The notes beneath the pieces are model-generated. The model saw only the letters and a list, made by a program, of their open reading frames with translations, did no database searches and was not told where the DNA came from. From the NCBI RefSeq assembly GCF_041248615.1, contig NZ_CP158426.1: DNA of 64,000 bases. The stretch is one strand, 5' to 3'. Made by a program: the position numbers and the translations under genes. Positions 390 through 49,931 of this stretch are shown piece after piece (position 1 is the first letter of the stretch; every line of letters starts with the position of its first letter). Origin of the DNA: Escherichia coli (GTDB lineage Bacteria; Pseudomonadota; Gammaproteobacteria; Enterobacterales; Enterobacteriaceae).

Positions 390-1442
390 ATGGGAATTAG
401 TGTTCGAGTCTTGCAAGCAAATCATGGTGATTGTTTCTTAGTTAGTTATAAGAGCTCAGATAGTGTTTACAACTTGCTAATTGATGGTGGTAATAGCGCC
501 ACATTTATGTTTGGGGCTCAAGGGCGCTACAGTGGTGAGCTTAAATGTGTACTCGATGATTTGAAAAAAGAAGGTCAGAAAATTGACTTGGTTATCTTAA
601 CCCATATAGATGATGATCATATCGGTGGTTTGCTTAGGGCTTTTGAAACACCAGGTTATCTATGCCAAATGGCTTCTTCTATCTGGTTTAATTCTTCAAG
701 ATTTATCACCAAACATTTTAAGGTTGATGAAATTTCAGACAATGATGTCTGTCTTCAAAGTAACTCAACGCAGACAAGTGCTAGGCAAGGGAAGAAACTG
801 GAAAACTTACTTGATGAAATCAATTGCGAACGGCAACCCATAGTTATTGCGGGGCAGAAGTTTACAAGGGGTCCGTTCACATTCACGATCTTATCCCCTG
901 AAGAAGATAATCTACGTAGCCTTCTTCATAAGTGGCCAGATGAGCCAGATCCGGTTACGACATCCGGTGCTTCAAGGGATTATGGAATGAAATTTGAGGA
1001 TATTTTGTCTAATGATAAATTCCAGAGTGATCAATCTGTTTATAATGGTAGCTCAATTGCTTTCATCCTTGAAGCTGATGGTAAGGCTATGCTCTTTTTG
1101 GGCGATTCACATGATGAAAATATTGTCCGTAATTTACGATCTCTTGGTTTTAATGAAGGTAACAAGCTCAAACTCGACCTCGTGAAAATTTCTCATCATG
1201 GTAGCCAGTATAATACTAGCCCTGAATTTTTGTCGCTCATAGATGCGCAAAACTTCATTATATCCACTAATGGGAGTAAGCACGGACTTCCTGATAAGAG
1301 AACTATTGCACGGATTTTATCTTCAGGAGAAGGCAAAATCGGCTTCAATTATTCGCACATTATCCAGGAGATGCTTCACGAAAATGAGGTTCCATTGTAC
1401 TCTTCTCGCCTGGTAGCATTAAATGGAGAAATTAGGCTATAA
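390..1442 (+). CDS. metallo-beta-lactamase fold hydrolase, ComEC/Rec2-type (putative nuclease effector)
   Basis: Motifs seen: N-terminal HGDCFLV, LTHIDDDHIGG (an HxDxDH variant of HxHxDH), KISHHGSQYNTS, and STNGSKHGLP. These are typical of the ComEC MBL domain. AAGGA lies 7 nt upstream of the ATG at 390; the tracked ORF starts at TTG 357. Confidence 0.8.
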   Translation: MGISVRVLQANHGDCFLVSYKSSDSVYNLLIDGGNSATFMFGAQGRYSGELKCVLDDLKKEGQKIDLVILTHIDDDHIGGLLRAFETPGYLCQMASSIWFNSSRFITKHFKVDEISDNDVCLQSNSTQTSARQGKKLENLLDEINCERQPIVIAGQKFTRGPFTFTILSPEEDNLRSLLHKWPDEPDPVTTSGASRDYGMKFEDILSNDKFQSDQSVYNGSSIAFILEADGKAMLFLGDSHDENIVRNLRSLGFNEGNKLKLDLVKISHHGSQYNTSPEFLSLIDAQNFIISTNGSKHGLPDKRTIARILSSGEGKIGFNYSHIIQEMLHENEVPLYSSRLVALNGEIRL

Positions 1443-1443
1443 A

Positions 1444-2727
1444 ATGACCGCTTCAAATTTGATGGCTTCTAACGCAGTGATCGTGAACGAGGGCAGTGGT
1501 GTTCTTGTTAATGCGATGACTCAAGATTATTCATACGTACTCACAGCAAAACATGTGTTAGCGAAATCAGGTAGTCAAAATATCGTTACTAATCAATATG
1601 GTAACAGTCTTAGAGTGCTTGATGTATTGGTGGGTCAGGAAGAGCATTGCGACTGTGCTGTAATCAAAATTGAATATGTACCAACTGTTGCTCAGCAGTC
1701 CTTCCCTGCAATAGCATTACCCAATTCGGCTTTGCTAAAGTTTGTTGGTTTTCCGGGAACCGAGAGACTAAGCGCTACCCCGCTGAAAATCTATGATGGG
1801 CATGTAACAGATGTAAGGGAGGGGCTGATTAGCTTCACGATAGAAGGCAGTCCCTCAAAAACCGCAATCGATGGAATGTCTGGCGGTGGAATGTATTACA
1901 TAGTTAATGAACATCCCCTCCTTGTTGGTGTAGAATTTGGGATGGACAGTATTCGTCAAGATCTACAATATGGACGTATACAATGTAAAAGTTTAATTGT
2001 TTTTGAAGAGATAATTAATTTAAACAGTGCTGCTCCAATGGTTCCCGCTTATTTGGAGTGTTTTTCACGCTTAAAAGAATATATCTTCGATTTTAATGTT
2101 GTTGATAAAAATAGAGTTCTGAATCTGAAAAACGCATTAAATATTTTTGCAGATGAACTTATAGACAAAGGTATGCCACCACCATTTGAATTAATGTCCA
2201 AATACAAAACTGATTTGTTAGTAGGTCCATATCAAGTTGACGATGTTAAAAATAAAGAATTATGGGTTGCATATTTTGAATTTCTGATAATTTGCGCAAT
2301 TCTTGATAATGTAAGTATTGCCAATAGTTCTTATATAGAAAGTTTAGAGCGGCGTAGGAGAATTCTTTATACTCCGGATGGAAGTAATTGGGTCGGAAAG
2401 CTTGATGTAATCTTAAAAGTTGCTCGAAAGTTATTAGATAAAGATGGCATAGTAATTGTGGCATCTCCAGAAAATGGAGCCGAATTATTACCGGATGATT
2501 TTGAAGTCGATAGGGTTATAAGGAATATTGCGCGAATCGCTAATTCAGGTCCACTTGCTCCTATCGATCAAGTTGAAAAAGAGATGTATAAGAGTTTTGT
2601 ATTAACGCATCTTGAAGGGCTGAGAAAAAAATGTGTTATAAACAAAGAGAGAATGTATGCAGAAGTTGAAGCTGGCTTAGACCAACTTCAGACGTTTAAG
2701 GAAAGCTTTAATGAATTTATTAAATAA
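1444..2727 (+). CDS. trypsin-like (S1/Trypsin_2-type) serine peptidase with a ~230-aa non-catalytic C-terminal domain
   Basis: Catalytic triad context: TAKHV (His), CDCAVIKI (Asp), DGMSGGG (Ser). The start is ambiguous (ATG 1423 or ATG 1444). The gene abuts or overlaps the upstream stop and overlaps the next gene by 17 nt. Confidence 0.75.
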   Translation: MTASNLMASNAVIVNEGSGVLVNAMTQDYSYVLTAKHVLAKSGSQNIVTNQYGNSLRVLDVLVGQEEHCDCAVIKIEYVPTVAQQSFPAIALPNSALLKFVGFPGTERLSATPLKIYDGHVTDVREGLISFTIEGSPSKTAIDGMSGGGMYYIVNEHPLLVGVEFGMDSIRQDLQYGRIQCKSLIVFEEIINLNSAAPMVPAYLECFSRLKEYIFDFNVVDKNRVLNLKNALNIFADELIDKGMPPPFELMSKYKTDLLVGPYQVDDVKNKELWVAYFEFLIICAILDNVSIANSSYIESLERRRRILYTPDGSNWVGKLDVILKVARKLLDKDGIVIVASPENGAELLPDDFEVDRVIRNIARIANSGPLAPIDQVEKEMYKSFVLTHLEGLRKKCVINKERMYAEVEAGLDQLQTFKESFNEFIK

Positions 2728-3262
2728 AGAATTTGATTTGGAATTTCTTAAATCTAGATTTTCTGATGCAGATTTCTATTTTTTTGTTTCTAATGATGAC
2801 TCATCTTATATTTCATGCGTAGCATGCTATTGTGAGAGCGCTAATTACGTGGTTGCGAATTGGACAGCGATTCAGAATTATTTATCTGCTTACTACCAAC
2901 CGAAGGATGAATTAGCTCTTTGGAATATATATTTAGTTTTCTTTTGTTCCGAAAAATTACCGATTTGGGATAAGTACCTTATAGATAATGATAAGTATTC
3001 TGTCAGAAAATTAATTATTGACGGGTTAACTACTCTGCCAAGTATTTCCGAAACTGTAACTTTTCTGAACAATCATCTGCTAGGCGCAGACCTAGAATTA
3101 ACTGAAATAGAGGAGAAGAAGGAGATAGAGTTATCATTAATTGAGTATATAAGTGGAACTCCTTTAGATTCAAAGGTTGAGTCGAGAGATGAGCGTATGA
3201 GCAGAATTGATAAAATTATTAATCTAGTGAGTTCAAATAAAAATGAAAATAAAAAAAGTTGA
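2711..3262 (+). CDS. small hypothetical protein, possibly the middle or adaptor component of the ATPase system
   Basis: 183-aa ORF overlapping both neighbours (17 nt and 20 nt), with an acidic, coiled C-terminus. No motif recognised by eye. Confidence 0.6.
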   Translation: MNLLNKEFDLEFLKSRFSDADFYFFVSNDDSSYISCVACYCESANYVVANWTAIQNYLSAYYQPKDELALWNIYLVFFCSEKLPIWDKYLIDNDKYSVRKLIIDGLTTLPSISETVTFLNNHLLGADLELTEIEEKKEIELSLIEYISGTPLDSKVESRDERMSRIDKIINLVSSNKNENKKS

Positions 3263-6200
3263 AATAGAAGGCTTTCGAGCATACAGATTCAAGGAAGATG
3301 GTACTTTCGATTTTACAAATAAAGATGATACGCCATCCAATTTTGTAGCGATCTATGCACCCAATGGCTTTGGAAAAAGTTCATTCTATGATGCGGTTGA
3401 ATGGGCTATTACTCATAATTTAGATAGATTTGCGGGTGAATATAATAAAAAAAATTATGAGCAAGCTGCCAGGAGCACGAAAGAGGACGGTGTTGCACAA
3501 AAAATACTACGTAATAAAGATGTACCAGACAATATTCCTACTCGTGTAACAGTTTTCACTACTTTACCAACTCCATTCGAACAAAGTTTAGGAACAGTTC
3601 GTTCTGATTCTAGAGATATAAGAATCGGCGAGAATAAAAATAAAATCAATGGCTATTTTAGAAAAGTGGTTCTTAGTCAAGATGAAATAGACCGTTTTTT
3701 AAAAGAAGCAAAGCCGCAAGATCGTTATAAGATGTTTATGGAGAGTTTTGGAGGTGAATGGGAAAAGGCGAGACAAGAGCTAACTATACTATTGAATGAC
3801 AATAAGGCGGTTTTGTTAAATCTCGAAAAAAACAAAAATGAACTTCAGGAACAACTAGATCAGCCTGTTGATGCGTCAACATTCATACAATTTAATAAAA
3901 TAGCATCTGAACTTGTAGCAGAAGGTGAAAGTTTACCATTAGTAGATGAAACAACTATAGTTAATACACAGCATGAGCTTTTGGAAAAAATAATCACAAG
4001 AAGTCACGAAATAAATTTTTCCTTAAACAAGAAAAAAATATTGAGAGATTCGATTTCTGAGTATATTTTAAAATTTCCTGATATCAGTTTTCGTACAACC
4101 CAGATTATCGAGAAAAAGAATAGACTAGAAAAAATAAATAAAGGGATAGAAGATGTCGGTCGTTATAAGACATTTCAGTCTACTCTTGAAAAACTGACTA
4201 TCGAAAAGAAAAAGATAAGTCAGAGCTTAAATTTTATAGAAGAATTAGATGGTTTATCCCAAGAGTTTTTAAGCTTGGAATTTAACTTGGAATCAGCTCG
4301 AAAGAAACATAGAGAGATTTCATATAATTATGAAAATGAAAAAACTCTCCTTGATAATTTATTCCAAACAAGAAACCAAAATGATGCTGATTTATCTTCA
4401 ATTGACAAGCGATGCTTATCTATACGTTCTACGTTAGAAAACGCTACGGTTACTTATTCTAATATATCTAATATACAAAATAAAATTTTAAATATAGTTT
4501 CTACGCAAACAGAATTAGAGCACAAACTTAATCAAGTTAGATCCGAATACCAAAAAAACAAATCCGAATTAAACAAAGTATCAGATTTAACAATAACCGC
4601 CAAATCATTACTTTCATCAGACTTAAGTCTAATTGATTTATCTTCAGATTTATTAAAAGAACTAAACAACTTATCGCAAGAACTAAATATATTGGTCCTA
4701 CATGATCAATCAATTCATAACACACAAGAATCTCTTTCTGCACAAATGGGAGTTCACGAACGTCTAATTGCATCGGGCCTTGAGTACTTAAGTTTATGGC
4801 CGACTAATATATGTCCTTTATGTCACAAGCCGCATGACTCTGAGTCCTCTCTTAGAGAACAAGTAACAAATACTGACGTAATATCCATGCTTAGTAAAGA
4901 GAATGCAGCTAAGCTCGAGATATCCTCAAAACGGCGGTCAGAGTTAAATGGCAAGATAGAATCCATCGTACAGAAAGCCCTTGAAATTAAAATGAGTAAA
5001 CTTGAGGTATTAAGTAAAAAGGTCAATCAACAAGGAAATGAGATACATCGAGAAGAACAGCACTATACAGCTCTTTTAGCAGAAAAACAGTCTGTCCAAA
5101 ATCAGTTAAACGAGTTGCAGAAGGCTGTAGCTGGACTAACTAAAGATGAATTATTAGCTCGCTTAGATGCTGAACTTAAAGAATTAGAGGCCAAGAAAAA
5201 TGAAGTGATAAAAAACAAGCTGACCTTGACGAAAAATATTAACGTTAAAAGAACGTTGATTACAGAGTTAAGTGGGGCGATCAATTTACTTAATACGCAA
5301 ATTCATGAAATGATGTCATCATCTAACTATTTAAAAACAAAAGCTTACTCTGAAGAAAATGGCTTGTCATCGGAGTTTTTGAAAGAACATTATGATGATA
5401 AACGCCATTTTTACCTTAAAAATATAAATGGACTCAATTTTGAGATTAATAATATTACCAGCCAATTAAATGATCTTCAGAAAGCTATGATAGCCGATGA
5501 AATGTGGCTGGATTATGAAGAAATGATTTCTGAAAAAGAGAATTTCGAGGATTATATTTCTAAATCAGAAGCGGTTTTACAATCTTATTCATCATTATTA
5601 AAGCAGCATTTTGAACTACCAAAATATGAATCTTTAGTTGAATTGAAAGATTTCCTGATAAGCTCACTTGATAAAGAAACTAGGCTTTATAATGGTCTAG
5701 AGGAACGGCTTGGAAAATATAATTTATTATCAGAACTTTTGAAAACAGCAGAGTCGTTTGTAAAAAGTATTAAGTTGCAGAATGATATTAATGAAACCTT
5801 AGGTCTTATAGAAATAAGAAAAGAAGTTGATTTAGCTCTGACTAAGGAACGAAATCAAGTAATAGAGGAACTTAGAAACTTGATAAAATCTTTCTTTTAT
5901 GAGGAACTCATTAATTCTATTTATAAGAGAATAGATCCACATCCATCACTTAAGAAAGTGGTGTTTCGCCCAGATTTTGACTCATCAGATAAACCTGGTC
6001 TTAATATAGTTGTCAGTGATGAAAAAGGTGATATGGTATCTCCAATATTATTCTTTAGTGCAGCGCAATTAAATATTCTAAGCCTTAGTGTCTTTTTAGC
6101 AAGTGCTTTGCATGCAAAAGATGATAATGGAAATGTAATTGATGTGATTATGATTGATGATCCAATTCAATCAATGGATTCAATTAATATCCTATCCACA

Positions 6201-6380
6201 ATTGATCTTCTTAGAAGTATTACCGTTAGATTCAACAAACAAATAATAATATCAACACATGACGACAATTTCTTTGGCTTGCTCCAACGTAAAATCCCTT
6301 CGGAAATATTGGGTGCCAAGTTTCTTAAATTGGAGAAATTTGGGGTTGTAGTGCCTGTTGATGATTTAAATAATACATGA
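3243..6380 (+). CDS. Rad50/SbcC/SMC-like ABC ATPase with a long coiled-coil insert and a central CxxC hook-like motif
   Basis: N-terminal beta-strand plus Walker A (IEGFRAY...YAPNGFGKSSFYDAVEWA). Q-loop-like LSQDE. About 700 aa of E/K/L/N-rich coiled coil. CPLC at residues 524-527 of 1045. C-terminal signature-like FFSAAQLNILSLS, Walker B VIMIDDP, D-loop SMD, H-loop ISTHD. Confidence 0.85.
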   Translation: MKIKKVEIEGFRAYRFKEDGTFDFTNKDDTPSNFVAIYAPNGFGKSSFYDAVEWAITHNLDRFAGEYNKKNYEQAARSTKEDGVAQKILRNKDVPDNIPTRVTVFTTLPTPFEQSLGTVRSDSRDIRIGENKNKINGYFRKVVLSQDEIDRFLKEAKPQDRYKMFMESFGGEWEKARQELTILLNDNKAVLLNLEKNKNELQEQLDQPVDASTFIQFNKIASELVAEGESLPLVDETTIVNTQHELLEKIITRSHEINFSLNKKKILRDSISEYILKFPDISFRTTQIIEKKNRLEKINKGIEDVGRYKTFQSTLEKLTIEKKKISQSLNFIEELDGLSQEFLSLEFNLESARKKHREISYNYENEKTLLDNLFQTRNQNDADLSSIDKRCLSIRSTLENATVTYSNISNIQNKILNIVSTQTELEHKLNQVRSEYQKNKSELNKVSDLTITAKSLLSSDLSLIDLSSDLLKELNNLSQELNILVLHDQSIHNTQESLSAQMGVHERLIASGLEYLSLWPTNICPLCHKPHDSESSLREQVTNTDVISMLSKENAAKLEISSKRRSELNGKIESIVQKALEIKMSKLEVLSKKVNQQGNEIHREEQHYTALLAEKQSVQNQLNELQKAVAGLTKDELLARLDAELKELEAKKNEVIKNKLTLTKNINVKRTLITELSGAINLLNTQIHEMMSSSNYLKTKAYSEENGLSSEFLKEHYDDKRHFYLKNINGLNFEINNITSQLNDLQKAMIADEMWLDYEEMISEKENFEDYISKSEAVLQSYSSLLKQHFELPKYESLVELKDFLISSLDKETRLYNGLEERLGKYNLLSELLKTAESFVKSIKLQNDINETLGLIEIRKEVDLALTKERNQVIEELRNLIKSFFYEELINSIYKRIDPHPSLKKVVFRPDFDSSDKPGLNIVVSDEKGDMVSPILFFSAAQLNILSLSVFLASALHAKDDNGNVIDVIMIDDPIQSMDSINILSTIDLLRSITVRFNKQIIISTHDDNFFGLLQRKIPSEILGAKFLKLEKFGVVVPVDDLNNT

Positions 6381-7256: not shown

Positions 7257-7696
7257 ATATTCTCCAGACAGAATTCATACCAATTATATGATATGCCAGA
7301 TTGACTCAATAAAGCGTTAACGAAGAACGAAAATATAAGACCAGGTATAGAACTCGACATGCCGATAGTCGCCGGGAAATATCGTGGCCAGATTTTTTGT
7401 TAATGCTCATAGTCAGGCAACAAGGGTCGCTGCAGTAATGACTTCTGAACCTTATAACAAATTTCGGCACGACACTTTTATCATCTTTTTCATAATAAAA
7501 CCTCCGTTTTTGTTTTAATCGTCCTCCGGATGTTTCGGACATTGGATGCCCGTAACATCCGGAGGCTGCGGGTGCGGGCGGCAAAGAGCCCGTGAAGATG
7601 CCCGGAATGAATGGCAAACCCCCTCAGGAATGAAGAAAATACGCAATCAATGCTGGGGTGCTTTGTTGATCACTTTTACTGAAGTACTTTTCTATC

Positions 7697-8416
7697 TCAG
7701 AAGTAGGTTGTCCAGAAAGAGGAAACTGGCATCGCCAGTACCAATGCAGGAAGCATACTGGCTACCGGGAAGACCTTGATACCGGAAATACGCAGGCCGG
7801 TCGCCACCATTAGAACGCCACCCACAGCTGAAAAGTCGGCCTGCATGGCAGGCGTGGTCAGGGGCAATATATATATCGCGCTGTAGGCGAGTGCTAACTG
7901 AATGATAAGCTGGGGGAAAGCGACTAATGCCACGGCGTAACCCAGGGTTGTGGCAAAAATGAGGGCGGTCAGCAAATCCAGGAACGCTTTCGCGATAAGG
8001 ATACTCGAGTCCCCGGTCATGCCTTCGTGCATCGCACCAAAAATACCGGTGCCACTGGCACAAAAAAGGACGATGATCGCCACATAGTTTTGTAAAAACT
8101 GCGCCTGTGAGTCTTTGTCTCCGGGATCGCTTTTCACGACGAGCTCCACCAACCCACGGGCTTGTCCGCCCAGGTGGCTTATCCCTTTTTCCAGATAGCA
8201 GAGCTCGCCCACCAGTGTGCCGAGAAGGACCGATAGAACCATGACGGGCATATGGCTGACACTTGTCACAAGGACGATCCCCATACACAGGGAGGCAGCA
8301 CCAAAAATGAGCGGCATTGAGGTACGTAACCTTTCAGGTAGACGTGAGCTAATGATGGCTCCTGCCATCCCGCCGATCACGACGGCAGAGCCGTTGAACC
8401 ATGGGCCTGTAATCAT
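7697..8416 (-). CDS. DUF554 (YqgA-like) inner-membrane protein
   Basis: 239-aa polytopic hydrophobic protein with an N-terminus like YqgA-family proteins (GxxxNxxAVxxGGxxG). Its start overlaps the stop of the UbiX-like gene (ATGA), so the two are co-operonic. Confidence 0.75.
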   Translation of the reverse strand: MITGPWFNGSAVVIGGMAGAIISSRLPERLRTSMPLIFGAASLCMGIVLVTSVSHMPVMVLSVLLGTLVGELCYLEKGISHLGGQARGLVELVVKSDPGDKDSQAQFLQNYVAIIVLFCASGTGIFGAMHEGMTGDSSILIAKAFLDLLTALIFATTLGYAVALVAFPQLIIQLALAYSAIYILPLTTPAMQADFSAVGGVLMVATGLRISGIKVFPVASMLPALVLAMPVSSFWTTYF

Positions 8417-21106: not shown

Positions 21107-23032
21107 CTAAAAGTTCAGTAACGAGGGATGATCCTCTTTACCTGCACCTGCACCTGCACCTGCACCTGCACTTGTTGTTGTGTGTTTCTCGTCCGGCTTG
21201 TCAAAAAAGAGATCGGGTTGTGTTGTCGTGATAACTGATGTTGATGACGGTCCGGATGACATTTCTTCCTCGTCAAAATTCAGGGCAATGTTGACTCTTG
21301 CGGCGGTGGCGGCAACAGCGGGCGATACGGCACAGATCGCCAGTTCCCTTTTTTTAACCCTGATGGGAGAAATTAGTGAAGCAGAGGGGAGGGCTTTGGT
21401 GGTGAATATAAAACTGACAAAATCAGGCAGGTTCAGCACCATATTACTGTCGATAAAGAAACGCTCGGCCTGCCTGATGGTGCGTTCACTATCGATAGTC
21501 TCTGTCAGCACCGCATCTGTTTTGGCTTTGCGGACTTCGTCATCGACTAATATGGTGCCTGACATTCTTGCCACCCAGTCAGCGGTATCAGGGTCCATGA
21601 CACGATAAACCAGCTTGAATTTGGCATTCTCCACAACTGCACCCACCACGGCATCGCTTTTCAAATCCGCCGGGCAATCTTTTAAATCGGCAATGGATTG
21701 GTGGTCCATAATAATGTGTACACCTTTATCCCGTGCCGCACCTAAGCCTTCCAGCGCAGGCTTGGATAAATGGTATTTCAGTTCGGAAAGGTAAATAGCA
21801 ATAGGGCGGGGTGTGTGGTTTACCCGATCGCGCCTTTCTGCCAGCTGGTACAGGCGAACCAGCAGCATGCGCTGAGCGGTAATAATTTTGCTGTTGCGCA
21901 TCGAGCCAATCACATAGCAGCAACCACCGTTATCAAATATTGTATTGAGGGAAAATCCTGCCGGTGCATTGATGGCATTGAGTAAGGCCAGCTCCTCAAT
22001 TTTCCCGAAAAAGGCTTTTATCTTATCAGCGATACTTTGGACGTATTCCCCGTTATACACATCCCGAATGGTTGAGGTCGTATTACGGGCGACAAATTGT
22101 GCAGCTATTCGGGCTGCTTTGCGATCGTCAATGCGATAAAAGTCAGACTCTTGTCCTTTCTCTGCCAGACTGAAACCCGCGACAAAAAGTTCTTCCAGTT
22201 CATCAGCGGTGATATCGTTAATCAGGTTTAGCTGGTATGCCTGTTTCCTCAGGTCAATTAGGGCAAAGGATTTCCCTGCATCCTCGCAGGCTTTCCGGTA
22301 AAGGTGTGGGGCCCACTCATCATCTTTGGGGTCCATAACAAATACGCCTTCACCGGCCAAAATACTCTGATAAAGTAATATCCCGGTGGCCACCCCTTTA
22401 CCGGCCCCCGTGGTCCCGATGATATCGGCATGTTGTTTTTGCCAGTCTTTTAACGGCAGGTACATCGGCTGTTTCATTCTGTTCATGCCGATAAAAATAC
22501 CTTTACTCAGGTTAATATAATCCTCCGGGTTATAGTGCAATGTTTCCGGTAGCAGCGATTTCACCGTTCGGACATCAGTACGTAATTCCCTTTCCAGAGT
22601 GGTTTTTCTGACGAACCGACTTTTTACTTTATCGAGTTCAGGTGTTAACACCCTGCGCAGAAGAATATGGAAAACAAAACCGGCTGCGGTAGAGGTAATC
22701 AGTATCAGCCAGGAGAGGACAGTATTGCTGGTGGCTATCTTTATTCGGTATATCCATTGAAATAATTCGTTCACCACGGGCGCTATTGTGCCAAACAAAA
22801 AGCACAGTATGGAAAAAACTATCACCAGCTTTTTCCATAAAGGGGCTTTGAGTCGTTCATCGCTTTTCATCGACGCGAAGAATGGCATGGTCAGCCCTGA
22901 GAATAGCGCCAAAATAGGTTGATGCTGGTGCATAAAAACGAGCAGTCCCAGCATGCCGTCCACTATCGGTGATAGTGAAACGATCAGCTTATTTAACACC
23001 ATAATGCTTCCTTTATCGGCCATTCGCCCCAC
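21107..23032 (-). CDS. mobB: type IV coupling protein (TraD/VirD4/CloDF13 MobB-like T4CP)
   Basis: N-terminal TM segments. Walker A IIGTTGAGKGV, Walker B-like VFVMDPKDDE, and a TraD/TraG C-terminal pattern. 641 aa. Confidence 0.9.
   Translation of the reverse strand: MGRMADKGSIMVLNKLIVSLSPIVDGMLGLLVFMHQHQPILALFSGLTMPFFASMKSDERLKAPLWKKLVIVFSILCFLFGTIAPVVNELFQWIYRIKIATSNTVLSWLILITSTAAGFVFHILLRRVLTPELDKVKSRFVRKTTLERELRTDVRTVKSLLPETLHYNPEDYINLSKGIFIGMNRMKQPMYLPLKDWQKQHADIIGTTGAGKGVATGILLYQSILAGEGVFVMDPKDDEWAPHLYRKACEDAGKSFALIDLRKQAYQLNLINDITADELEELFVAGFSLAEKGQESDFYRIDDRKAARIAAQFVARNTTSTIRDVYNGEYVQSIADKIKAFFGKIEELALLNAINAPAGFSLNTIFDNGGCCYVIGSMRNSKIITAQRMLLVRLYQLAERRDRVNHTPRPIAIYLSELKYHLSKPALEGLGAARDKGVHIIMDHQSIADLKDCPADLKSDAVVGAVVENAKFKLVYRVMDPDTADWVARMSGTILVDDEVRKAKTDAVLTETIDSERTIRQAERFFIDSNMVLNLPDFVSFIFTTKALPSASLISPIRVKKRELAICAVSPAVAATAARVNIALNFDEEEMSSGPSSTSVITTTQPDLFFDKPDEKHTTTSAGAGAGAGAGKEDHPSLLNF
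21140..21170. repeat. in-frame hexanucleotide repeat (ACCTGC)x5 encoding (Ala-Gly)5 in the T4CP C-terminal tail
   Basis: Read directly. It corresponds to SAGAGAGAGAGK, 11 residues before the stop. Confidence 0.9.
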
Positions 23033-23700
23033 GACATCGCCCCCTCAATTCGCCCCACGGTGTTGGGCGAAAAGCTGGGGTGAAAGCAGGGGCAAACAGA
23101 GGTGGCTGCGGTGCAGCCATGTGCCGGTAGATAGACTTTCCGGCCCGAAACGACGTGCACCAGTTCATGCGGGCTGGACGCCCTTATTGCCTGGCGCATG
23201 GGGGTAATGGCGTGGCTGTACGCCGCGCCAAAACCCCCAGGGTCAACGGCGGCACACCGTCGCCCGCTACGCGCGACCAACCCCTTTAAGACGCGCGTTT
23301 CGCCTGTTTTTTTCTCGCAAGCTCCAAAAAACGGGAACGCTGCTTTAAAGGGGTTGGTCGCGCCTGATTGGTAATATCCCCGCTGGGGCGGGAAATATTA
23401 CCTGGCTTGACGGTGTGCGGGGCAAGCCCCCCACAAAAAACGGCACGTGGGCGTGCCTTTTTGCTCGCTGGGGCGGCAAAATTTTTGCGGCTCCCCCGGC
23501 CTGCTTAATTCGCTGTGGGCGAATGTGCGCAGATGGATGCGGTACCTGAAAATTAACAATTTCTGCGAAATTGAATTTTCTGTCCGCGTTCCACTGGCTT
23601 ATTTCACGGCTTAACAATTTCTCCGAAATTGAAGCCAGAAATTAGCCAGCCTCAACCCCGCCGTCTGTCAGTCTGTGGCGCTGTGAGGCATAGTGTAATG
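23033..23700. other. non-coding repeat-rich region, candidate oriT / relaxosome assembly site
   Basis: 668 bp with no credible CDS, lying between mobB and the virB11-side operon. 19-bp perfect inverted repeat (23271-23289 / 23345-23363). TTCGCCCCACG direct repeats (about 23022 and 23047). Two 23-bp direct repeats (23553-23575 / 23611-23633, 22 of 23 identical). Several short GC hairpins. Confidence 0.5.
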
Positions 23701-23709
23701 TCCGGTGGT

Positions 23710-24015
23710 TCACACCTGTTCGCGATATATTTCAGCCCGGCATTCCTGTTCAGCCTTTAATACCTCCCGGTAGGTTTCATCATCGACTTTCGTTCCCTGA
23801 TTTTCGGCGTATCGTCTGAGTTTGTCAGCATCCTGTTCATTAAGACGCGAAAGATGATGTCGCAATAAACTGATCAGTCTACTTTCATAGATCTCATAGT
23901 AAAGGCCGCATCCCTGATTCGCTTCCTCAGAGAACTTTCTGTACACGGCTCCGACCGATATTCTGTCATGATGCATTGAGTGGATGTTGGAAATAAAAAG
24001 GTTTTCTTTATCCAT
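23710..24015 (-). CDS. hypothetical protein, last gene of the virB11-side operon next to the oriT-like region
   Basis: 101-aa ORF with a helical, charged C-terminus. No motif recognised. Confidence 0.45.
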   Translation of the reverse strand: MDKENLFISNIHSMHHDRISVGAVYRKFSEEANQGCGLYYEIYESRLISLLRHHLSRLNEQDADKLRRYAENQGTKVDDETYREVLKAEQECRAEIYREQV

Positions 24016-24410: not shown

Positions 24411-24806
24411 TTAATGTGAAAAATAAATATAGGTATCGCTACACGTCAGGCACTGAGTTGCAGGTTGATATTCAATAACACCATTTGCGCCATGCTGGCG
24501 AAGCCAGCTTGTTGCAGTAAAGAATGCTGTGCCTGATGGTGCAGCAACAACAATACGCGTCGAATGCGCAACTGCGTAAAATACGTCGGGGGTCCAAAGT
24601 GTCTCGTTAAACTGCGTTGAGTGAACGGACAATAACCACTTCCCATTAACGATTGGGGAAGGATTAATAACGGGGGTGTCATTCCATTGCGATAAATTGA
24701 TATTCACTGACTCGCCCGATTTATCCCATTCAACAGATACCGGTGGGGGTGGTGACGAACAGCCGGTAAGCACCATTAAAAATAACAGTATATTGATGGT
24801 TTTCAT
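24411..24806 (-). CDS. T4SS-associated lipoprotein
   Basis: Lipobox LTGC at residues 13-16, followed by a proline run. Its start overlaps the virB11 stop (TAATG). Confidence 0.65.
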   Translation of the reverse strand: MKTINILLFLMVLTGCSSPPPPVSVEWDKSGESVNINLSQWNDTPVINPSPIVNGKWLLSVHSTQFNETLWTPDVFYAVAHSTRIVVAAPSGTAFFTATSWLRQHGANGVIEYQPATQCLTCSDTYIYFSH

Positions 24807-25825
24807 TATGCTTTCATCTCCTCGAAGAAGGCATTACGGTGCAGTGGCCGGAAATAGATATCATTCATTCGGCGCACGTTGCCGTCTAAATCAATACTGA
24901 CAATAACATCCAGACTGTCCAGCACTTTGCGTAACATAAACGTGTAGGGCAGCCGGGCGCATTGTGGGTTTTCATAACAGCGAGTAATAAAACCGTCTAC
25001 CGCTTCTATTGCTGAACCCGCATGCAGGGAAGTCATACTGCCTTCATGGCCGGAGCCGGTTATTTTGAGAAAATCCCAGGCTTCACCACCGCGCACTTCG
25101 GTTAACAATATACGGTCGGGGTTCATGCGATAATTCCAGCGCAGAAGACTGGCTGGCGTCACAATCGAGCCTTTTTCATCTGCTGATTCGGACGGATAGA
25201 AGAGGTGGACATAGTTTTTATGAACAAAAAAGGTGATTTCCGGATTATCTTCAATGGTCGTAATACGCAAATGGCGAGGAATAAAACCAATCAGCATCTT
25301 CATGTAGGTTGTTTTCCCGGTACCGGTTTCCCCGGCCACCGCGATAGTTTTACCGTACTCCACGCACTTCTCCATAAAGCGCGGGATATCTTTGGCGGTA
25401 TACAGGCTCAACAATTCCTGATCGTGCGTCTGGGTGGTTTCTGAGCCCGTCACCCTGTTATAAAAACCGGCGTCGATATAGCTCTGGTGGGGAATTTGTA
25501 CCTGTGACGGCTTTCGGATAGTAATGGAGACGGTGTTGCGCTCACAGGCCGGAGGGACAATAACCTGACAACGTTCACCGGATTCCAGCGTGGCTGACAG
25601 CCCCGGTTTGATATCTTCAATATTGTCGCAGTGATGCTTTGCCAGGCATCTGGCGAAGTTGTAGCACCCCTCATAATCCAGCGAAACACTGTGCAGCTCC
25701 CAGATACCATTAATTTTGGTAAATAGCTCGCCCGGGCGGTTGACGGCGATTTCTGTTAGTCCAGGATGAGCAATAAAATCGCCAAAAAATCGCTGTGTAT
25801 AGCGATCGAGAGAGATGTTTTTCAT
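24806..25825 (-). CDS. virB11: VirB11 secretion ATPase
   Basis: Walker A GETGTGKTT plus VirB11/GspE-type motifs. AAGGA lies 7 nt upstream of the ATG at 25825; the tracked ORF extends to 25849 without an RBS. Confidence 0.9.
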   Translation of the reverse strand: MKNISLDRYTQRFFGDFIAHPGLTEIAVNRPGELFTKINGIWELHSVSLDYEGCYNFARCLAKHHCDNIEDIKPGLSATLESGERCQVIVPPACERNTVSITIRKPSQVQIPHQSYIDAGFYNRVTGSETTQTHDQELLSLYTAKDIPRFMEKCVEYGKTIAVAGETGTGKTTYMKMLIGFIPRHLRITTIEDNPEITFFVHKNYVHLFYPSESADEKGSIVTPASLLRWNYRMNPDRILLTEVRGGEAWDFLKITGSGHEGSMTSLHAGSAIEAVDGFITRCYENPQCARLPYTFMLRKVLDSLDVIVSIDLDGNVRRMNDIYFRPLHRNAFFEEMKA

Positions 25826-25862
25826 GTGATATCCTTGTATCGGATACATTTGTGGAGGGAGT

Positions 25863-26870
25863 ATGTCGAAGACGAAAGTACTGTTCGCTTATTGCCATGA
25901 ACTCGGGCGCTGTTTGTCCATTGATGAAGCGCGAATGGAATTTTTTTCCAGAAAGCCGGAAGAAAGGAAGCGGTTCACTTTTTCATGTAGCGATCGCAAC
26001 TGTGATGTCACCATTAGCGGTGTTAACTATCACGTCAAAGCTGAAGATGGTGAGAAATTCAAGGCTGCGCACTTCCGTTCACCTCATCCTCACAAGTTCG
26101 GATGTGAATGGCTCGAATTCACCGAGGATGCGGATCAGGACCGGCGTCCAGACGAGTCAGAGGCTGATTTCACAGAACGAAAAGCAAAGCAAAAGCTGAC
26201 GGACTATATCAACTGCTTTGACCCTTCAATAGATGATCCTGATGGCGAACCATCCGATCCCGTGAAGCTTGTTACGCCTGTTCACACAAGAAAAACTGTC
26301 GGGGATGATGATAAAACGGGTACAAATGAAGAGCCCCGCTGGAGTCGCTACACGCGAACCAACCAGCTTCAGCGACTTATCGACACATGGCAGGAAGCGA
26401 AAGAAACGCTGCCTCAGGATGAGTTCCGGGCGTTGAGACTCAGGATCATGCACCATGATCAGGTCTATCTACATGAATATATAACGCATATACAGCGTGG
26501 ATTGGCTAATCCGTATTCGGGCGTCATCTATGGTGGTGGGACCCTAATGCATCGGTATGGTCGGGGTTTTCTGATTAATTTCTTTGATAAACATGAGGGG
26601 AAGCCTGTTCGCCTGTATGTCAGTAAAGATCTGATGGCGAAAGGACGGTTTGGTCATTATATCGATGAGATTCTGGACACTAAAAACGTCAGATATTTCC
26701 GTATATTTTTACTCAATCCGGTTGTTTCCGAACGGGAAAACAGCACAGGAAAAAGCGTTATCAACCTTGAAATATCAAAGCTGCGTCAACTGGCTATTTA
26801 CTACGAACTGAACTCCAGCAGAGAAGATGAATCTTCATCGGTGGAGACGGAGGGGGAAAGTCCGGCGTAG
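25863..26870 (+). CDS. hypothetical Cys/His-rich protein, encoded antisense to the T4SS operon
   Basis: 335-aa ORF with GGAGGGA upstream of the ATG. N-terminal C..C / CSDRNC / H..H..C pattern (possible zinc ribbon) and an acidic middle region. No family recognised. Confidence 0.6.
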   Translation: MSKTKVLFAYCHELGRCLSIDEARMEFFSRKPEERKRFTFSCSDRNCDVTISGVNYHVKAEDGEKFKAAHFRSPHPHKFGCEWLEFTEDADQDRRPDESEADFTERKAKQKLTDYINCFDPSIDDPDGEPSDPVKLVTPVHTRKTVGDDDKTGTNEEPRWSRYTRTNQLQRLIDTWQEAKETLPQDEFRALRLRIMHHDQVYLHEYITHIQRGLANPYSGVIYGGGTLMHRYGRGFLINFFDKHEGKPVRLYVSKDLMAKGRFGHYIDEILDTKNVRYFRIFLLNPVVSERENSTGKSVINLEISKLRQLAIYYELNSSREDESSSVETEGESPA

Positions 26871-27187
26871 CGGGCTAATGTTGTCACAAGAATGAGTATA
26901 TCGGTGACGTCAGGCAGCGATATCTGCTTATGTGCCAGCCGGATATCGTCCGGGGAAAAAGGCGGTGCATCCAAAGGGCCTTCACTGATGGTGATACAGA
27001 ACGGTTGCTCTTCTCCTGAGTCAATACTGAGTTCTATCAATGCGCCCCCGGCACGATAGCATGTCATGACTATTCTTCTGATTCCGGTAAGGTGTGACAG
27101 TAAGTCGTTGACGACAGCGTTGCTGAAATCGTCCCTTACGATGACGTCTGTCGCCGTAACACCAAACAAAAACTTTCGATTACTCAC
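26801..27187 (-). CDS. hypothetical protein translationally coupled to virB10
   Basis: 128-aa ORF. Its GTG start overlaps the virB10 stop (GTGAGTAA). Its last ~23 codons overlap the 3' end of the convergent 335-aa gene. Confidence 0.45.
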   Translation of the reverse strand: MSNRKFLFGVTATDVIVRDDFSNAVVNDLLSHLTGIRRIVMTCYRAGGALIELSIDSGEEQPFCITISEGPLDAPPFSPDDIRLAHKQISLPDVTDILILVTTLARYAGLSPSVSTDEDSSSLLEFSS

Positions 27188-28430
27188 TCTTCATCCTCAG
27201 CGTGTAGATGCCTGAAAAATCAATATCCTGCCCTGTGACCAGGTTGATGATTTCACCCTGATTTTTGTAGAGCGTCGGTGGGATATTAATGCTGTTTTCC
27301 AGCGTGGTACGTGCCATATCCGCCATAGCCTGACGGCTGTTTTCTGTATAGTCGGTATTCCGATCTTTCTGACCGGCGCTGTTGGATGCCCATGCCCCAA
27401 TATCAGGGATCATACCGACCAGTAATGCACCTCCAAATCGCTCCCTGAAATGCGAGTCTATCCAGCCATCAACGCCAGCCTCGCCCAGTTCTCCGGCAGC
27501 ATTCGTATCGACCAGCGGAATATCAAGGAAAGGGGGCTGGCGGGTACGCAGTTTCGTGATGATGATGAATGCGCGTCCCTGTCCATGCGTCATTCCTGTT
27601 TCTGCACCAGTCTGGTACATCCCCGTGGCGGTGGTCCCTTTTTCTATCAGCTTTGTATTACCGCTGGCGCTCCAGATGTCTTCGGCGATCGTGCAGCGGA
27701 TTTTTCCAGCCCGATCTGAGACAAAACGGTAATCCAGTGAGCAGGGAATAGCGGTATTTTCCGGCACGTACAGATCGGGATTATAAGGAATTCGCCGGAC
27801 CGCTGTCGGGGACTGTTCCGGCTGTGGCGACGAGGTGTTTAGCGGCTGACCGGTATCAGAATATTGTGTCTCTGACGGCTGTCTGGCTGAGGATGCCTGC
27901 GTCATTTCCTGATACCGGGTCCGTACCGGATTTCGTACCGCTGAACCTGAACCCTCCCGGCGCACCAGAAAACGGGCTTTATCTAAGTCGGGCAGAGCCT
28001 CCGATCCGTTGGGTGTCGTACTACCAGGGTTGTTGTCCGCCGGTTCTGGTGTTTTCGCGTCGATATAGTGCGTACCCAGATCGGTACGCTGTCGAGAATC
28101 GGTCCGATCTGTCGGGGCCACAGTTTCCTGAGGCTTTTCTTTACCTGGCTGCCAAAGAAGATTGTGGTATATCCAGTTACCCCCCCACGCCAGTGCAATC
28201 AGGGCAACGGCAGCGAATGCCAGAAAAGCGGTGGCTTTCCCCTGCTGGCGCTTTTTCAGTTTATTGACAGCCGGCTGTATTGGATCGTTATTGTCATCAT
28301 CCTGCCAGGTGTGAAGCACAGCTTCACGCTTTGCGCGGGCCTCGCGCTCAAGCGCAGCAATATCATCATCCTTCTGTGTCGGACAGGACCTGGATTCATC
28401 TGGCACAGGATGCAGATGTTCGTCATTCAT
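27180..28430 (-). CDS. virB10: VirB10 (TrbI family)
   Basis: N-terminal cytoplasmic region plus a single TM, a Pro-rich linker, and a C-terminal TrbI/VirB10 beta-barrel pattern. 416 aa. Confidence 0.85.
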   Translation of the reverse strand: MNDEHLHPVPDESRSCPTQKDDDIAALEREARAKREAVLHTWQDDDNNDPIQPAVNKLKKRQQGKATAFLAFAAVALIALAWGGNWIYHNLLWQPGKEKPQETVAPTDRTDSRQRTDLGTHYIDAKTPEPADNNPGSTTPNGSEALPDLDKARFLVRREGSGSAVRNPVRTRYQEMTQASSARQPSETQYSDTGQPLNTSSPQPEQSPTAVRRIPYNPDLYVPENTAIPCSLDYRFVSDRAGKIRCTIAEDIWSASGNTKLIEKGTTATGMYQTGAETGMTHGQGRAFIIITKLRTRQPPFLDIPLVDTNAAGELGEAGVDGWIDSHFRERFGGALLVGMIPDIGAWASNSAGQKDRNTDYTENSRQAMADMARTTLENSINIPPTLYKNQGEIINLVTGQDIDFSGIYTLRMKSE

Positions 28431-48422: not shown

Positions 48423-49694
48423 CTAGCCAGCTTGAAGCGTCGTTTTTCCTCTCCCCAGTATGTAGGGCGGTACATAGGATTTGCGGCAAGTATCCAGATA
48501 ATCCGACCACCACTGCATCATTGCCTTTCTTGCTTCCAGATGCTCTGCTCTGTGAATATATGCCTGGCGTACGGAGTTACGTTCCTGGTGGCTCATTTGC
48601 CGTTCAACAGCATCCTGTGACCATATACTGGATTCCATAAGGGCACTGCATGCCATTGTCCTGAAACCGTGACCACAGATTTCCATTTTCGTATCCCAGC
48701 CCATCAGGCGTAGCGCCTTGTTCACCGTATTTTCACACATGGGTTTATACGGATTATGGTCCCCGGGGAACACGAGTGCATTATCTCCTGAGATATCCTT
48801 AATCTTTTTCAAGATCGCGATCGACTGTTGTGAGAGGGGTACGATATGAGGCCTGCGCATTTTGGCACCACGACCAGAGTAACGCACGCCTTCAATAGCT
48901 TCGCGCGTGGCGGGTATTGTCCAGACCTGGTTTCCGAAATCAATTTCATGCCAGCGGGCAAAACGCAATTCACTCGAGCGAATGAACAGATGCAGTGTTA
49001 GCAGGATGGCAAGGCGAGTGAGTTCACGGCACTGCTGAAAACTCTCAATGCTCTCAAGCAGTTCTGGAAGACGCTCCAGTGGTAGAGCGGGGTAGTGTCG
49101 TTTTACTGGTGGAGCCGTCACTCCGTCAAGGTTTGCTGCCGGATTAAAATCGATTAATCCATGATGCACGGCGTAGCGCATGATATTCCGGAGGTGCTGG
49201 CGTGTACGGGATGCAACTTCCAGGAGACCCTTTTCCTCAATTCCTTTTAATAAAGTGATGAAATGGCGGGGTTTCAGTTCTGAAACTGACATGGTGCCAA
49301 TGACTGGGAAGATATGATTATTCATGCTGGCGAGCAAACGGTCGGCGGTGTTCTCTGACCATTTTTTATTGCTCTTGTGCCATGCAAGTGCAACGTTTCT
49401 AAACACTTTCTTTGGCATGCGAGAACTGCGTTCGGCTGCTCGCTGCTCTGCTGGATTGATGTTCAGTACCAGCATTTTGCGAATACCTTCACGTTGACTA
49501 CGGGCGTCTGAGAGGGAGATGACTGGGTAGGCACCGAGTGCAATACGTGATTCTTTACCCTTAATACGGTACTTGAGATACCAGTGACGTGAACCGCCAG
49601 GTTTGACCAAGAGATACAGACCGTGGGAATCGGAAACTTTAAAGGGTTTATCAGATGGTTTGAGACTGCGGATTTTGGTGTCGGTAAGAGACAT
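48423..49694 (-). CDS. int: P4-type tyrosine integrase
   Basis: N-terminal LTDTKIRSLKPSDKPFKVSDSHGLYLLVKPGGSRHWYLKYR. C-terminal R...H.(F)R...Y catalytic pattern. It lies 161 bp from the tRNA-Asn 3' end. Confidence 0.9.
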   Translation of the reverse strand: MSLTDTKIRSLKPSDKPFKVSDSHGLYLLVKPGGSRHWYLKYRIKGKESRIALGAYPVISLSDARSQREGIRKMLVLNINPAEQRAAERSSRMPKKVFRNVALAWHKSNKKWSENTADRLLASMNNHIFPVIGTMSVSELKPRHFITLLKGIEEKGLLEVASRTRQHLRNIMRYAVHHGLIDFNPAANLDGVTAPPVKRHYPALPLERLPELLESIESFQQCRELTRLAILLTLHLFIRSSELRFARWHEIDFGNQVWTIPATREAIEGVRYSGRGAKMRRPHIVPLSQQSIAILKKIKDISGDNALVFPGDHNPYKPMCENTVNKALRLMGWDTKMEICGHGFRTMACSALMESSIWSQDAVERQMSHQERNSVRQAYIHRAEHLEARKAMMQWWSDYLDTCRKSYVPPYILGRGKTTLQAG

Positions 49695-49855
49695 ATGGGG
49701 TCACTCCATAATAGAACGAACCGGACCCCAGATTTGACCACCAATTTTTCCCGATGCGGAGGATAAAATCAAAATGCATCAGGAGAAGTTTTCACGCTAA
49801 GCTGTTGTATTAAAACCATAGAGGCATTAATGAATGCTGCACGAAAACAAGAATT

Positions 49856-49931
49856 TGGCTCCTCTGACTGGACTCGAACCAGTGACATACGGATTAACAG
49901 TCCGCCGTTCTACCGACTGAACTACAGAGGA
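49856..49931 (-). tRNA. asnT: tRNA-Asn (GUU)
   Basis: The reverse complement reads TCCTCTGTAGTTCAGTCGGTAGAACGGCGGACTGTTAATCCGTATGTCACTGGTTCGAGTCCAGTCAGAGGAGCCA, which is the E. coli tRNA-Asn sequence. The asnT name is inferred from adjacency to mtfA. Confidence 0.95.

Follow-up and report, generated by a model that had tools for sequence, protein, structure and literature searches.

Within a 64,000-nucleotide stretch of the Escherichia coli contig NZ_CP158426.1 (assembly GCF_041248615.1), analysed as a whole and referred to as the window, two overlapping genes on opposite strands, orf335 and orf128, separate virB10 from virB11 in an integrative and conjugative element (ICE) with a VirB-type type IV secretion system (T4SS). 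Comparison with other genomes and plasmids indicates that this pair is a widespread mobile two-gene accessory cassette of conjugative elements, found across several transfer-system types. The window matches the chromosome of E. coli NRZ14408 at 100% identity, and the host ICE, of about 50 kb, is integrated at tRNA-Asn beside mtfA; it encodes a tyrosine integrase, AlpA, the VirB-type T4SS, a coupling protein and MobC, and its cargo includes an ABC-3C system and ArdC. The pair is carried by 7 of 5426 complete E. coli genomes.

The gene upstream of the pair, virB10 (27180-28430, minus strand, 416 amino acids (aa)), matches NF041422 VirB10_subf (E 4e-170) and PF03743 TrbI, and its 3' end on the transfer strand reads ...CTG AGG ATG AAG AGT GAG TAA. 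It is followed on the same T4SS-operon strand by orf128 (26801-27187, minus), encoding an acidic protein of 128 aa with an isoelectric point (pI) of 4.4, whose GTG start (27185-27187) sits inside AGTGAGTAA with AGGA 6 nt upstream and overlaps the end of virB10 within GTGAGTAA, so that the two genes are translationally coupled. orf128 is the final gene ahead of orf335 (25863-26870, plus strand, 335 aa), which is preceded by the Shine-Dalgarno sequence GGAGGGAGT-ATG and lies opposite the transfer genes, antisense to the path of the operon from orf128 to virB11. The 3' ends of the pair overlap tail to tail by 70 bp (26801-26870), a segment in which both proteins have their C-terminal tails encoded, rich in Ser, Asp and Glu. 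Downstream of the cassette the transfer genes resume with virB11 (24806-25825, minus, 339 aa; TIGR02788 VirB11, E 7e-88), for which the most likely start is the ATG at 25823-25825, provided with its own Shine-Dalgarno sequence (AAGGATATCAC-ATG) and also chosen by the annotation pipeline PGAP; the alternative start of the longest open reading frame (ORF), at 25849, has none. This choice gives a divergent spacer of 37 bp (25826-25862) that holds the Shine-Dalgarno sequences of both orf335 and virB11 and is too short for a full promoter and leader. A first-pass annotation of the window had delimited the same four genes, and every one of its coordinates and junctions was correct on recheck, including the 70-bp overlap, the 37-bp distance between starts (with the ATG at 25825) and the string GTGAGTAA through which it had coupled virB10 to the smaller ORF.

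Both genes are under purifying selection, as judged from pairwise Nei-Gojobori estimates of the ratio of nonsynonymous to synonymous substitution (dN/dS) over ten loci. In orf335 the ratio is 0.12 for the N-terminal domain (aa 1-118, 25863-26216), 0.38 for the linker (aa 119-160, 26217-26342), 0.15 for the C-terminal domain (aa 161-315, 26343-26807) and 0.39 for the tail (aa 316-335, 26808-26867); in orf128 it is 0.43 for codons 2-40, 0.32 for codons 41-105 and 0.26 for the tail. Close homologues of orf335 number 59 (47-98% identity, Enterobacterales and Vibrio), homologues of orf128 33, with 40 more from a profile search, and the 70-bp overlap together with the start position of orf128 is retained in 10 loci, down to 59% identity; the overlap measures 64-67 bp in Vibrio and 46 bp in Aliivibrio. 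Moreover, AT and GC skew change sign across orf335, as expected for a plus-strand gene among minus-strand genes. The outcome is the opposite of the one, namely no conservation and a dN/dS near 1, that the first-pass annotation had named as speaking against its reading: the ratios run from 0.12 to 0.43 and homologues are many. A spurious origin of the ORFs is excluded because the coding signature of purifying selection is joined by the homologues and depth of the families and by the recurrence and conserved spread of the pair. As regards the smaller gene, the PGAP/RefSeq model consists of 88 aa only (26801-27067) and starts at an internal ATG; the 128-aa model is to be preferred on comparative grounds, since the first 40 codons remain open and aligned in distant homologues, codons 2-40 give the dN/dS reported above, and the upstream start codon is ATG in four loci (L007, L008, L011 and L012) and GTG in the others. 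The automatic annotation thus needs correcting.

The pair as an insert in transfer operons

In close relatives of the host element virB10 and virB11 overlap directly, and by this comparison the pair is a precise insert at an otherwise direct junction. In particular, the two genes overlap by 11 bp both in pMET-1 and in an E. coli ICE with a virB11 of about 78% identity (L039, overlap at 4014-4024) and which lacks the pair, as read directly from both sequences; these overlaps support the view of the first-pass annotation that the pair interrupts genes that are normally contiguous. Among the matches listed, the annotation of most chromosomal loci at about 78% identity places virB10 immediately at the start of virB11; the listed E. 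coli ICEs other than L039 were judged by annotation, and the search gave 205 chromosomal matches in total. The pair is absent from pMET-1, from other IncX-like plasmids and from the listed E. coli ICEs with a virB11 at about 78% identity; it is therefore, as far as these relatives with the same T4SS indicate, not a core component of the VirB/D4 system. The first-pass annotation had proposed to look for the insert in homologous ICEs, with a divided result: eight enterobacterial VirB-type loci carry it, but the listed E. coli ICEs at about 78% identity do not.

The insert-free junction reads ...CTGAGGTTGAAAAATGACCGCTAAG. With the insert, virB10 is coupled at its end to orf128 instead, and virB11, now provided with a Shine-Dalgarno sequence of its own, lacks its original first residues (MTAKNISL becoming MKNISL). 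Neither direct nor inverted repeats flank the pair, and a transposon-like insertion was rejected for this reason. The junction itself is a cargo slot, in which other genes are also found: a 106-aa membrane ORF in an E. coli ICE (L037, 4514-4834) and a 63-aa ORF in plasmid pNORD1_2 (L038, 4514-4705), both located on the transfer strand, coupled to virB11 and ending in ...DDR before the stop. The 106-aa junction ORF of NZ_OZ465017 was considered as a relative of orf128 and rejected, being unrelated to it. At the left edge of the cassette, AAGGATATCACATG, comprising Shine-Dalgarno sequence and ATG, precedes virB11 (25812-25862); in Pantoea pAPP145_3 (L011, 5950-6000) the Shine-Dalgarno-ATG segment GAGGTTATCACATG precedes a traH-like gene, again with a gap of 37 bp to the ATG of the orf335 homologue. 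The left edge thus seems to supply the next gene, whichever it is, with its Shine-Dalgarno sequence and ATG, a lead drawn from two contexts.

A genome scan turned up eight loci that share the VirB gene order and have the pair at the virB10-virB11 junction, belonging to Klebsiella, Kosakonia, Brenneria, Erwinia, Pectobacterium, Symbiopectobacterium, Winslowiella and an unclassified enterobacterium. Nine enterobacterial loci (L001-L008 and L012) have the convergent pair in this position. The pair, again convergent, is also found between traF and trbB in an F-type Providencia plasmid (L020), after traI in Serratia pE13, among ORFs of Pantoea pAPP145_3 taken as F-type transfer genes (named from N-terminal sequences only), between hns and T4SS genes in pVA1-type Vibrio plasmids, adjoining the T4SS ATPase in V. 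vulnificus and Aliivibrio, in a Rhizobium megaplasmid and, at 22% identity, in Beijerinckia pBIND01, which is typed MPF_I. On metagenomic contigs the convergent ORF is about 134-148 aa long as called, overlaps the large gene by 55-94 bp or abuts it exactly, and has as neighbours RadC, toxin-antitoxin genes, or integrase, VirB8, SSB and CagX. Nearly all the members of the orf335 family that were examined are accompanied by a convergent partner of about 115-165 aa that overlaps or abuts them, and in all the loci read the spacing of the convergent pair lies between a 110-bp overlap and a 6-bp gap. Wherever a locus read has a partner, the two genes converge; at the annotated plasmid and ICE loci the large gene is always opposite to the neighbouring transfer genes and the small one on their strand. 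Over all the loci read, the small gene usually overlaps the preceding gene or sits no more than 14 nt from it, one exception being a 105-nt gap after RadC in L025. Since the same pair, embedded in the same way, occurs in the transfer operons of many unrelated plasmids and ICEs, its function is suggested to be tied to conjugation. The first-pass annotation had treated the two genes as a peculiarity of one ICE, which is not borne out: they form a mobile cassette with a co-evolving partner family.

In Aliivibrio (L015) the small family is represented twice: besides the convergent partner, a second paralogue of 116 aa (5519-5869) flanks the large gene on its opposite side. In V. vulnificus pVv_GCU-01-3 (L024, 7986-8974) the orf335 homologue is split into two ORFs by a frameshift or stop and the convergent partner is intact; this may be a decaying copy.

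Some copies of orf335 stand alone. In Rahnella victoriana (L010, 1817-12720) a solo homologue, with no small partner, is located in a defence island, with TerY/PP2C/STK_OB (TerY-P) genes and a PDC-M14A-like zinc-ribbon gene to one side of it and genes for a Type IIG restriction-modification enzyme, for a helicase and for a T5orf172 protein to the other. On a metagenomic contig (L042, 2312-5566) the homologue is the third gene of an operon, overlapping and translationally coupled, after a Multi_ubiq/Prok-E2 protein and a ThiF-type E1, with an M78 peptidase and a helix-turn-helix gene as neighbours, a context that resembles a conflict system. In Pantoea sp. Mb-10 (L009) the solo copy lies by a degraded remnant of the 5' end of virB11 (5890-6000), with mtfA adjoining (7419-8252), and is probably what is left of a decayed ICE; the solo copy of L030 is a plain chromosomal orphan. 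The existence of solo copies means that the large protein is tolerated without its partner and hints at a host-side role for it.

In the remainder of the window, the ABC-3C system of the ICE (390-6380) consists of a ComEC/Rec2-like protein, an ABC-3C protein, a middle component 1 and an AAA ATPase of 1045 aa. A stretch of about 680 bp without any PGAP gene (23032-23710, with short mechanical ORFs only and a raised G+C content of 0.58-0.60) lies between the coupling-protein gene and a 101-aa gene and is a candidate for the region of the origin of transfer (oriT). The right end of the ICE is marked by the integrase and tRNA-Asn (48423-49931), with mtfA beyond; directly after the ICE end (beyond 51000) comes a lambdoid prophage integrated at tRNA-Ser, which includes a frameshifted integrase, DicB, YdaT, Q, lysis genes and HK97-type head genes.

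Protein architecture and family relationships

The N-terminal domain of orf335 gathers the conserved Cys and His residues of the protein. Across 62 members of the family, which share 20-63% identity, the only invariant residues are C11, C42, C47, H77 and C81, with H70 invariant among close homologues; as these five Cys/His are the sole invariant positions, no catalytic constellation is present, and the set points to a putative structural metal site rather than an enzymatic centre. Of the Cys/His pattern that the first-pass annotation had likened to a zinc ribbon, C11, C42, C47, H70, H77 and C81 are conserved and C18, H12 and H75 are not, and the zinc ribbon stays a putative reading, the N-domain model being of moderate confidence; its description of the protein as Cys/His-rich likewise needs qualifying, the 335 aa containing only 6 Cys, though the conserved Cys/His are indeed clustered in the N-terminal domain. 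That the protein has such a site and belongs to no recognised family, as was also claimed there, is supported by the alignments and by the empty family scans. Zinc-finger Pfam models gave single chance-level matches only against the 62 family members, the N-domain model having a predicted local distance difference test (pLDDT) score of 50-80. The N-terminal motif presumably resembles a CoiA-type zinc finger (C..C...HFxH...C), which we take as an unconfirmed lead only.

The predicted model of orf335 has a mean pLDDT of 71; residues 124-165 fall below 50 and the C-terminal domain is mostly above 90. The linker is acidic (pI 4.3), variable and disordered, and has the lowest nucleotide conservation of the region; the C-terminal domain is basic (pI 9.6) with 19 aromatic residues; the tail, encoded within the overlap, is acidic (pI 4.05) and missing from some distant homologues. 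The basic, aromatic-rich C-terminal domain therefore stands in charge contrast to the acidic linker, tail and partner, and neither orf335 nor orf128 has a hydrophobic segment. In Foldseek searches with the C-terminal domain the top match in the PDB is the E. coli single-stranded DNA-binding protein (SSB; E 3e-3, probability 0.97) and phage SSBs are matched in BFVD (E 7.5e-4); the structural matches are consistently oligonucleotide/oligosaccharide-binding (OB) folds resembling SSB, RPA and MCM10. According to the model, then, the domain is an OB fold, and only this fold class is claimed, not membership of a family, because the fold-search scores are modest. In fact, the SSB profile PF00436 did not match orf335 at E up to 1 or the 62 family members at E up to 0.1 (hmmscan), and the orf335-family profile retrieved no SSB from the PDB sequences; its only match there, to eIF5 (E 0.11), was treated as noise. 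On the strength of the predicted fold, the charges and the set of invariant residues, orf335 is probably a non-enzymatic, nucleic-acid-binding protein, and its OB fold most likely binds single-stranded DNA (ssDNA). The same combination of a predicted basic, aromatic-rich OB fold, acidic disordered segments and a Cys/His site in one polypeptide likens it to SSB, T4 gp32, RPA70 and the internal domain of MCM10. The predicted model of orf128 (pLDDT 54) was too poor for a fold search. Of the homology and structure search that the first-pass annotation had advised for both proteins, the yield is thus the predicted OB fold of the larger one; neither has a family match, and for the smaller one the model did not suffice.

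Scans of orf335 and orf128 against Pfam, NCBIfam, PADLOC and PHROG gave no match, and Pfam scans of 23 partner sequences and of the 62 large-family members gave single chance-level matches only; a profile search with diverse partners likewise found no Pfam domain or functional name in the orf128 family. The label "Immunity protein 10", borne by one UniRef cluster with an orf128 homologue, was rejected, as hmmscan of 23 members gave no Imm10 match at E up to 10, and "ATPase" and "Bacteriophage protein" are isolated names backed by none of the family scans. One distant member of the orf335 family has a weak Pfam match to ABC-3C middle component 3 (E 0.009), probably by chance. Literature searches, made with protein accessions and by topic, yielded no account of either family.

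The orf335 family comprises 380 clusters at 50% identity (exhaustive profile search, E <=1e-3), nearly all of 305-340 aa. As for the partners, jackhmmer started from intermediate sequences joins those of enterobacteria, Vibrio, Providencia, Rhizobium and metagenomes into one family, and among the 1588 ORFs of the fetched loci it matched only partner ORFs and the small-family paralogue of L015; for the partners of Beijerinckia, L028 and L042 jackhmmer found no link to this family. The pairwise distances of the two families are correlated (Spearman 0.88, a value reached in 0 of 5000 Mantel permutations), which indicates that the families co-diverge.

A tightly linked, co-diverging pair on mobile elements, whose neighbours are often toxin-antitoxin genes (ParE, RelB, Hok), recalls an addiction module, in which one protein would be toxic and the other its antidote, the overlapping 3' ends could serve as mutual antisense RNAs that set their ratio, and the element would be stabilised. 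This explanation is very improbable: neither protein matches a toxin or antitoxin family in Pfam, NCBIfam or PADLOC, orf335 lacks a catalytic motif and is maintained alone by several genomes and so is not a lethal toxin, and a toxin within the transfer operon would poison donors. Moreover, known type II toxin-antitoxin systems are co-directional operons, unlike the convergent pair.

Co-divergence with a small acidic partner can also be read as cooperation. Here orf335 would be an ssDNA-coating or establishment protein, comparable to plasmid SSB, ArdC-N or VirE2, that protects or processes the transferred strand, possibly after export or early in the recipient, and orf128 would be an acidic chaperone like VirE1 that keeps it soluble and off the DNA in the donor. 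An SSB-like OB fold with an acidic linker and tail, as in SSB, gp32 and gp2.5, would suit such a protein, as would its almost exclusive occurrence in conjugative elements, near SSB, RadC, TopB, H-NS and ArdC-type establishment genes, and the production of the partner together with the T4SS. By analogy, the Agrobacterium VirE2/VirE1 pair likewise joins a nucleic-acid binder (predicted in the present case) to a small acidic protein and is tied to a VirB-type T4SS. However, client and chaperone are normally co-transcribed, as in the co-directional operon virE1-virE2, and here the client is head-on to the operon of the chaperone at every locus read that includes a partner, and the present pair is convergent and overlapping. 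Nor does a transfer helper agree with solo copies found in a defence island or within an E2/E1 operon; neither a sequence nor a fold match to VirE2/VirE1 was seen, sequence matches to the SSB, gp32 and ArdC families are equally lacking, and orf335 is not in the leading region of this ICE. On balance a cooperative role is unlikely.

Transcription across the pair and proposed function

A consensus scan of 24.7-27.5 kb found neither a sigma-70-like promoter, on either relevant strand, nor an intrinsic terminator, and in particular no terminator between orf128 and orf335. No shared promoter was seen upstream of orf335 by eye in 18 loci, a sliding conservation profile over nine ICE loci was free of conserved non-coding peaks, conserved repeats of operator type were not found either, and Rfam gave nothing relevant in 22.5-29 kb. 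As no promoter or terminator was detected in 24.7-27.5 kb, virB11, cag12, trbM, the coupling-protein gene and mobC must be reached either by transcription that crosses orf335 in antisense or from a promoter within orf335 that escaped recognition; orf335, in turn, must have its promoter inside the 5' end of virB11. Given the lack of a terminator or promoter-like site nearby and the 37 bp between the divergent starts, read-through across the pair is plausible. The first-pass annotation had held that the promoter for virB11 must be inside or next to the 335-aa gene; this does not follow, read-through from the virB operon being at least as likely. Its suggestion that convergent transcription could couple the gene inversely to T4SS expression gains weight, as the antisense, tail-to-tail layout is conserved in several unrelated T4SS types.

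Elements opposite the transfer strand whose transcription opposes the transfer operon are known, namely prgX/prgQ of pCF10 and the finP antisense RNA of F. These act at the 5' control region of the operon with known regulators or RNAs, in contrast to orf335/orf128, which are two proteins encoded in the middle or at the end of the operon and have no Rfam match. By comparison with pCF10 the pair could be a bistable regulatory switch, in which orf335 would bind DNA and repress or activate the T4SS operon and orf128 would act as the anti-regulator: a putative DNA-binding protein is encoded antisense inside the operon it could control, the two genes are not separated by a terminator, and a partner produced only when the operon is on gives a positive-feedback layout. 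Such a switch is nevertheless quite unlikely, since the closest relatives have essentially the same T4SS without the pair, which is hence not a core regulator, and the cassette occurs in VirB-type, F-type and other clusters with differing promoters and regulators; an OB fold with a metal site is, besides, not the usual architecture of a bacterial operator-binding protein, a conserved operator-like repeat was not found, and solo copies lie away from any T4SS.

The preferred reading, held tentatively, is that orf335 is a binder at work in the absence of transfer, its target probably being foreign ssDNA, and that the transfer operon both silences and neutralises it. When the operon is silent, orf335 would be expressed and its product would act on DNA. 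When the operon fires, RNA polymerase would read through orf128 and, in antisense, orf335 to virB11 and the genes downstream; this read-through would lower the expression of orf335 by collision and antisense pairing and would also make orf128, the presumed cognate small acidic partner, which would bind the orf335 protein already present and neutralise it. We infer that the geometry of the locus makes the expression of the two genes reciprocal, and that the small protein antagonises the large one. The binder would thus be switched off just as the element produces transfer DNA of its own in single-stranded form, and the likeliest payoff would be interference with foreign ssDNA, from competing conjugative elements or ssDNA phages, so that the role would be one of fertility inhibition or defence, with a self-antidote. 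Solo copies fit a binder that works unaided in the host and for which an antidote becomes necessary only if its element transfers ssDNA.

This can be taken further, to a hitherto unrecognised kind of immunity gated by conjugation, in which orf335, as a zinc/OB-fold protein, would capture the ssDNA, incoming or replicating, of rival plasmids, ICEs or ssDNA phages, the element itself would be spared by head-on silencing and by orf128, and the solo copies in defence islands would be an effector kept by the host without the antidote; this extension is conceivable but doubtful. Accessory genes with a patchy distribution within or beside transfer genes, such as Osa, FipA and PifC, and defence-island genes offer a likeness, which includes the solo homologues in the defence island and the E2/E1 operon; unlike these, the pair matches nothing in PADLOC or Pfam.

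Several points weigh against the preferred reading of an ssDNA binder silenced by the transfer operon. PADLOC-DB 2.0 gave 0 families at E up to 1 for either protein; no promoter for orf335 was found in the consensus scan of 24.7-27.5 kb, and few stretches of the region are less conserved than the 37-bp spacer. The evidence is wholly computational, with an N-domain model of low to moderate confidence, a putative metal site deduced from the invariant Cys/His and a poor model of the partner (pLDDT 54). The convergent layout is no proof of antagonism, because cooperative pairs can also be convergent. The defence-island argument draws on two loci, the two other solo copies being an ICE remnant (L009) and an orphan (L030). 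Finally, insertions in the positionally analogous trbA and artA of F reportedly have no transfer phenotype, a warning that genes of this kind can be dispensable. The reference list of PMC5102898 cites such insertions only as constructed mutants.

The same F genes provide the nearest likeness in gene order. On the F plasmid (L021) traF is followed by trbA (plus, 115 aa), artA (minus, 104 aa), traQ and trbB; a small gene on the transfer strand thus precedes one on the opposite strand, and the Providencia pair is also located between traF and trbB. Homology is not detectable, F TrbA having been rejected as a homologue of orf128 (hhalign probability 0.4%) and F ArtA as one of orf335 (0.2%); ArtA has one third of the size of orf335, and trbA and artA abut without overlap. 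According to PMC5102898, trbA and artA co-occur as an accessory pair. In this setting orf335 and orf128 are a new, unnamed pair of families with an unusual conserved layout that belong to a known category, the accessory genes within transfer operons.

Antibiotic resistance travels mainly on conjugative elements, whose transfer operons tend to be seen as fully catalogued; the pair has been inserted into such operons repeatedly, with the same head-on overlapping geometry, in different types of secretion system and in both gamma- and alphaproteobacteria. If its DNA binding is indeed linked to the on and off states of transfer, it would represent a new layer of control or conflict in conjugation, be it fertility inhibition, defence or protection of the transferred strand, and a natural case of regulation by convergent overlap that has been maintained across great evolutionary distance. 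Genes that lie opposite the transfer strand, such as artA in F, are a long-standing puzzle on which the pair offers a concrete handle, and both families deserve a name and a profile even if their role proves modest.

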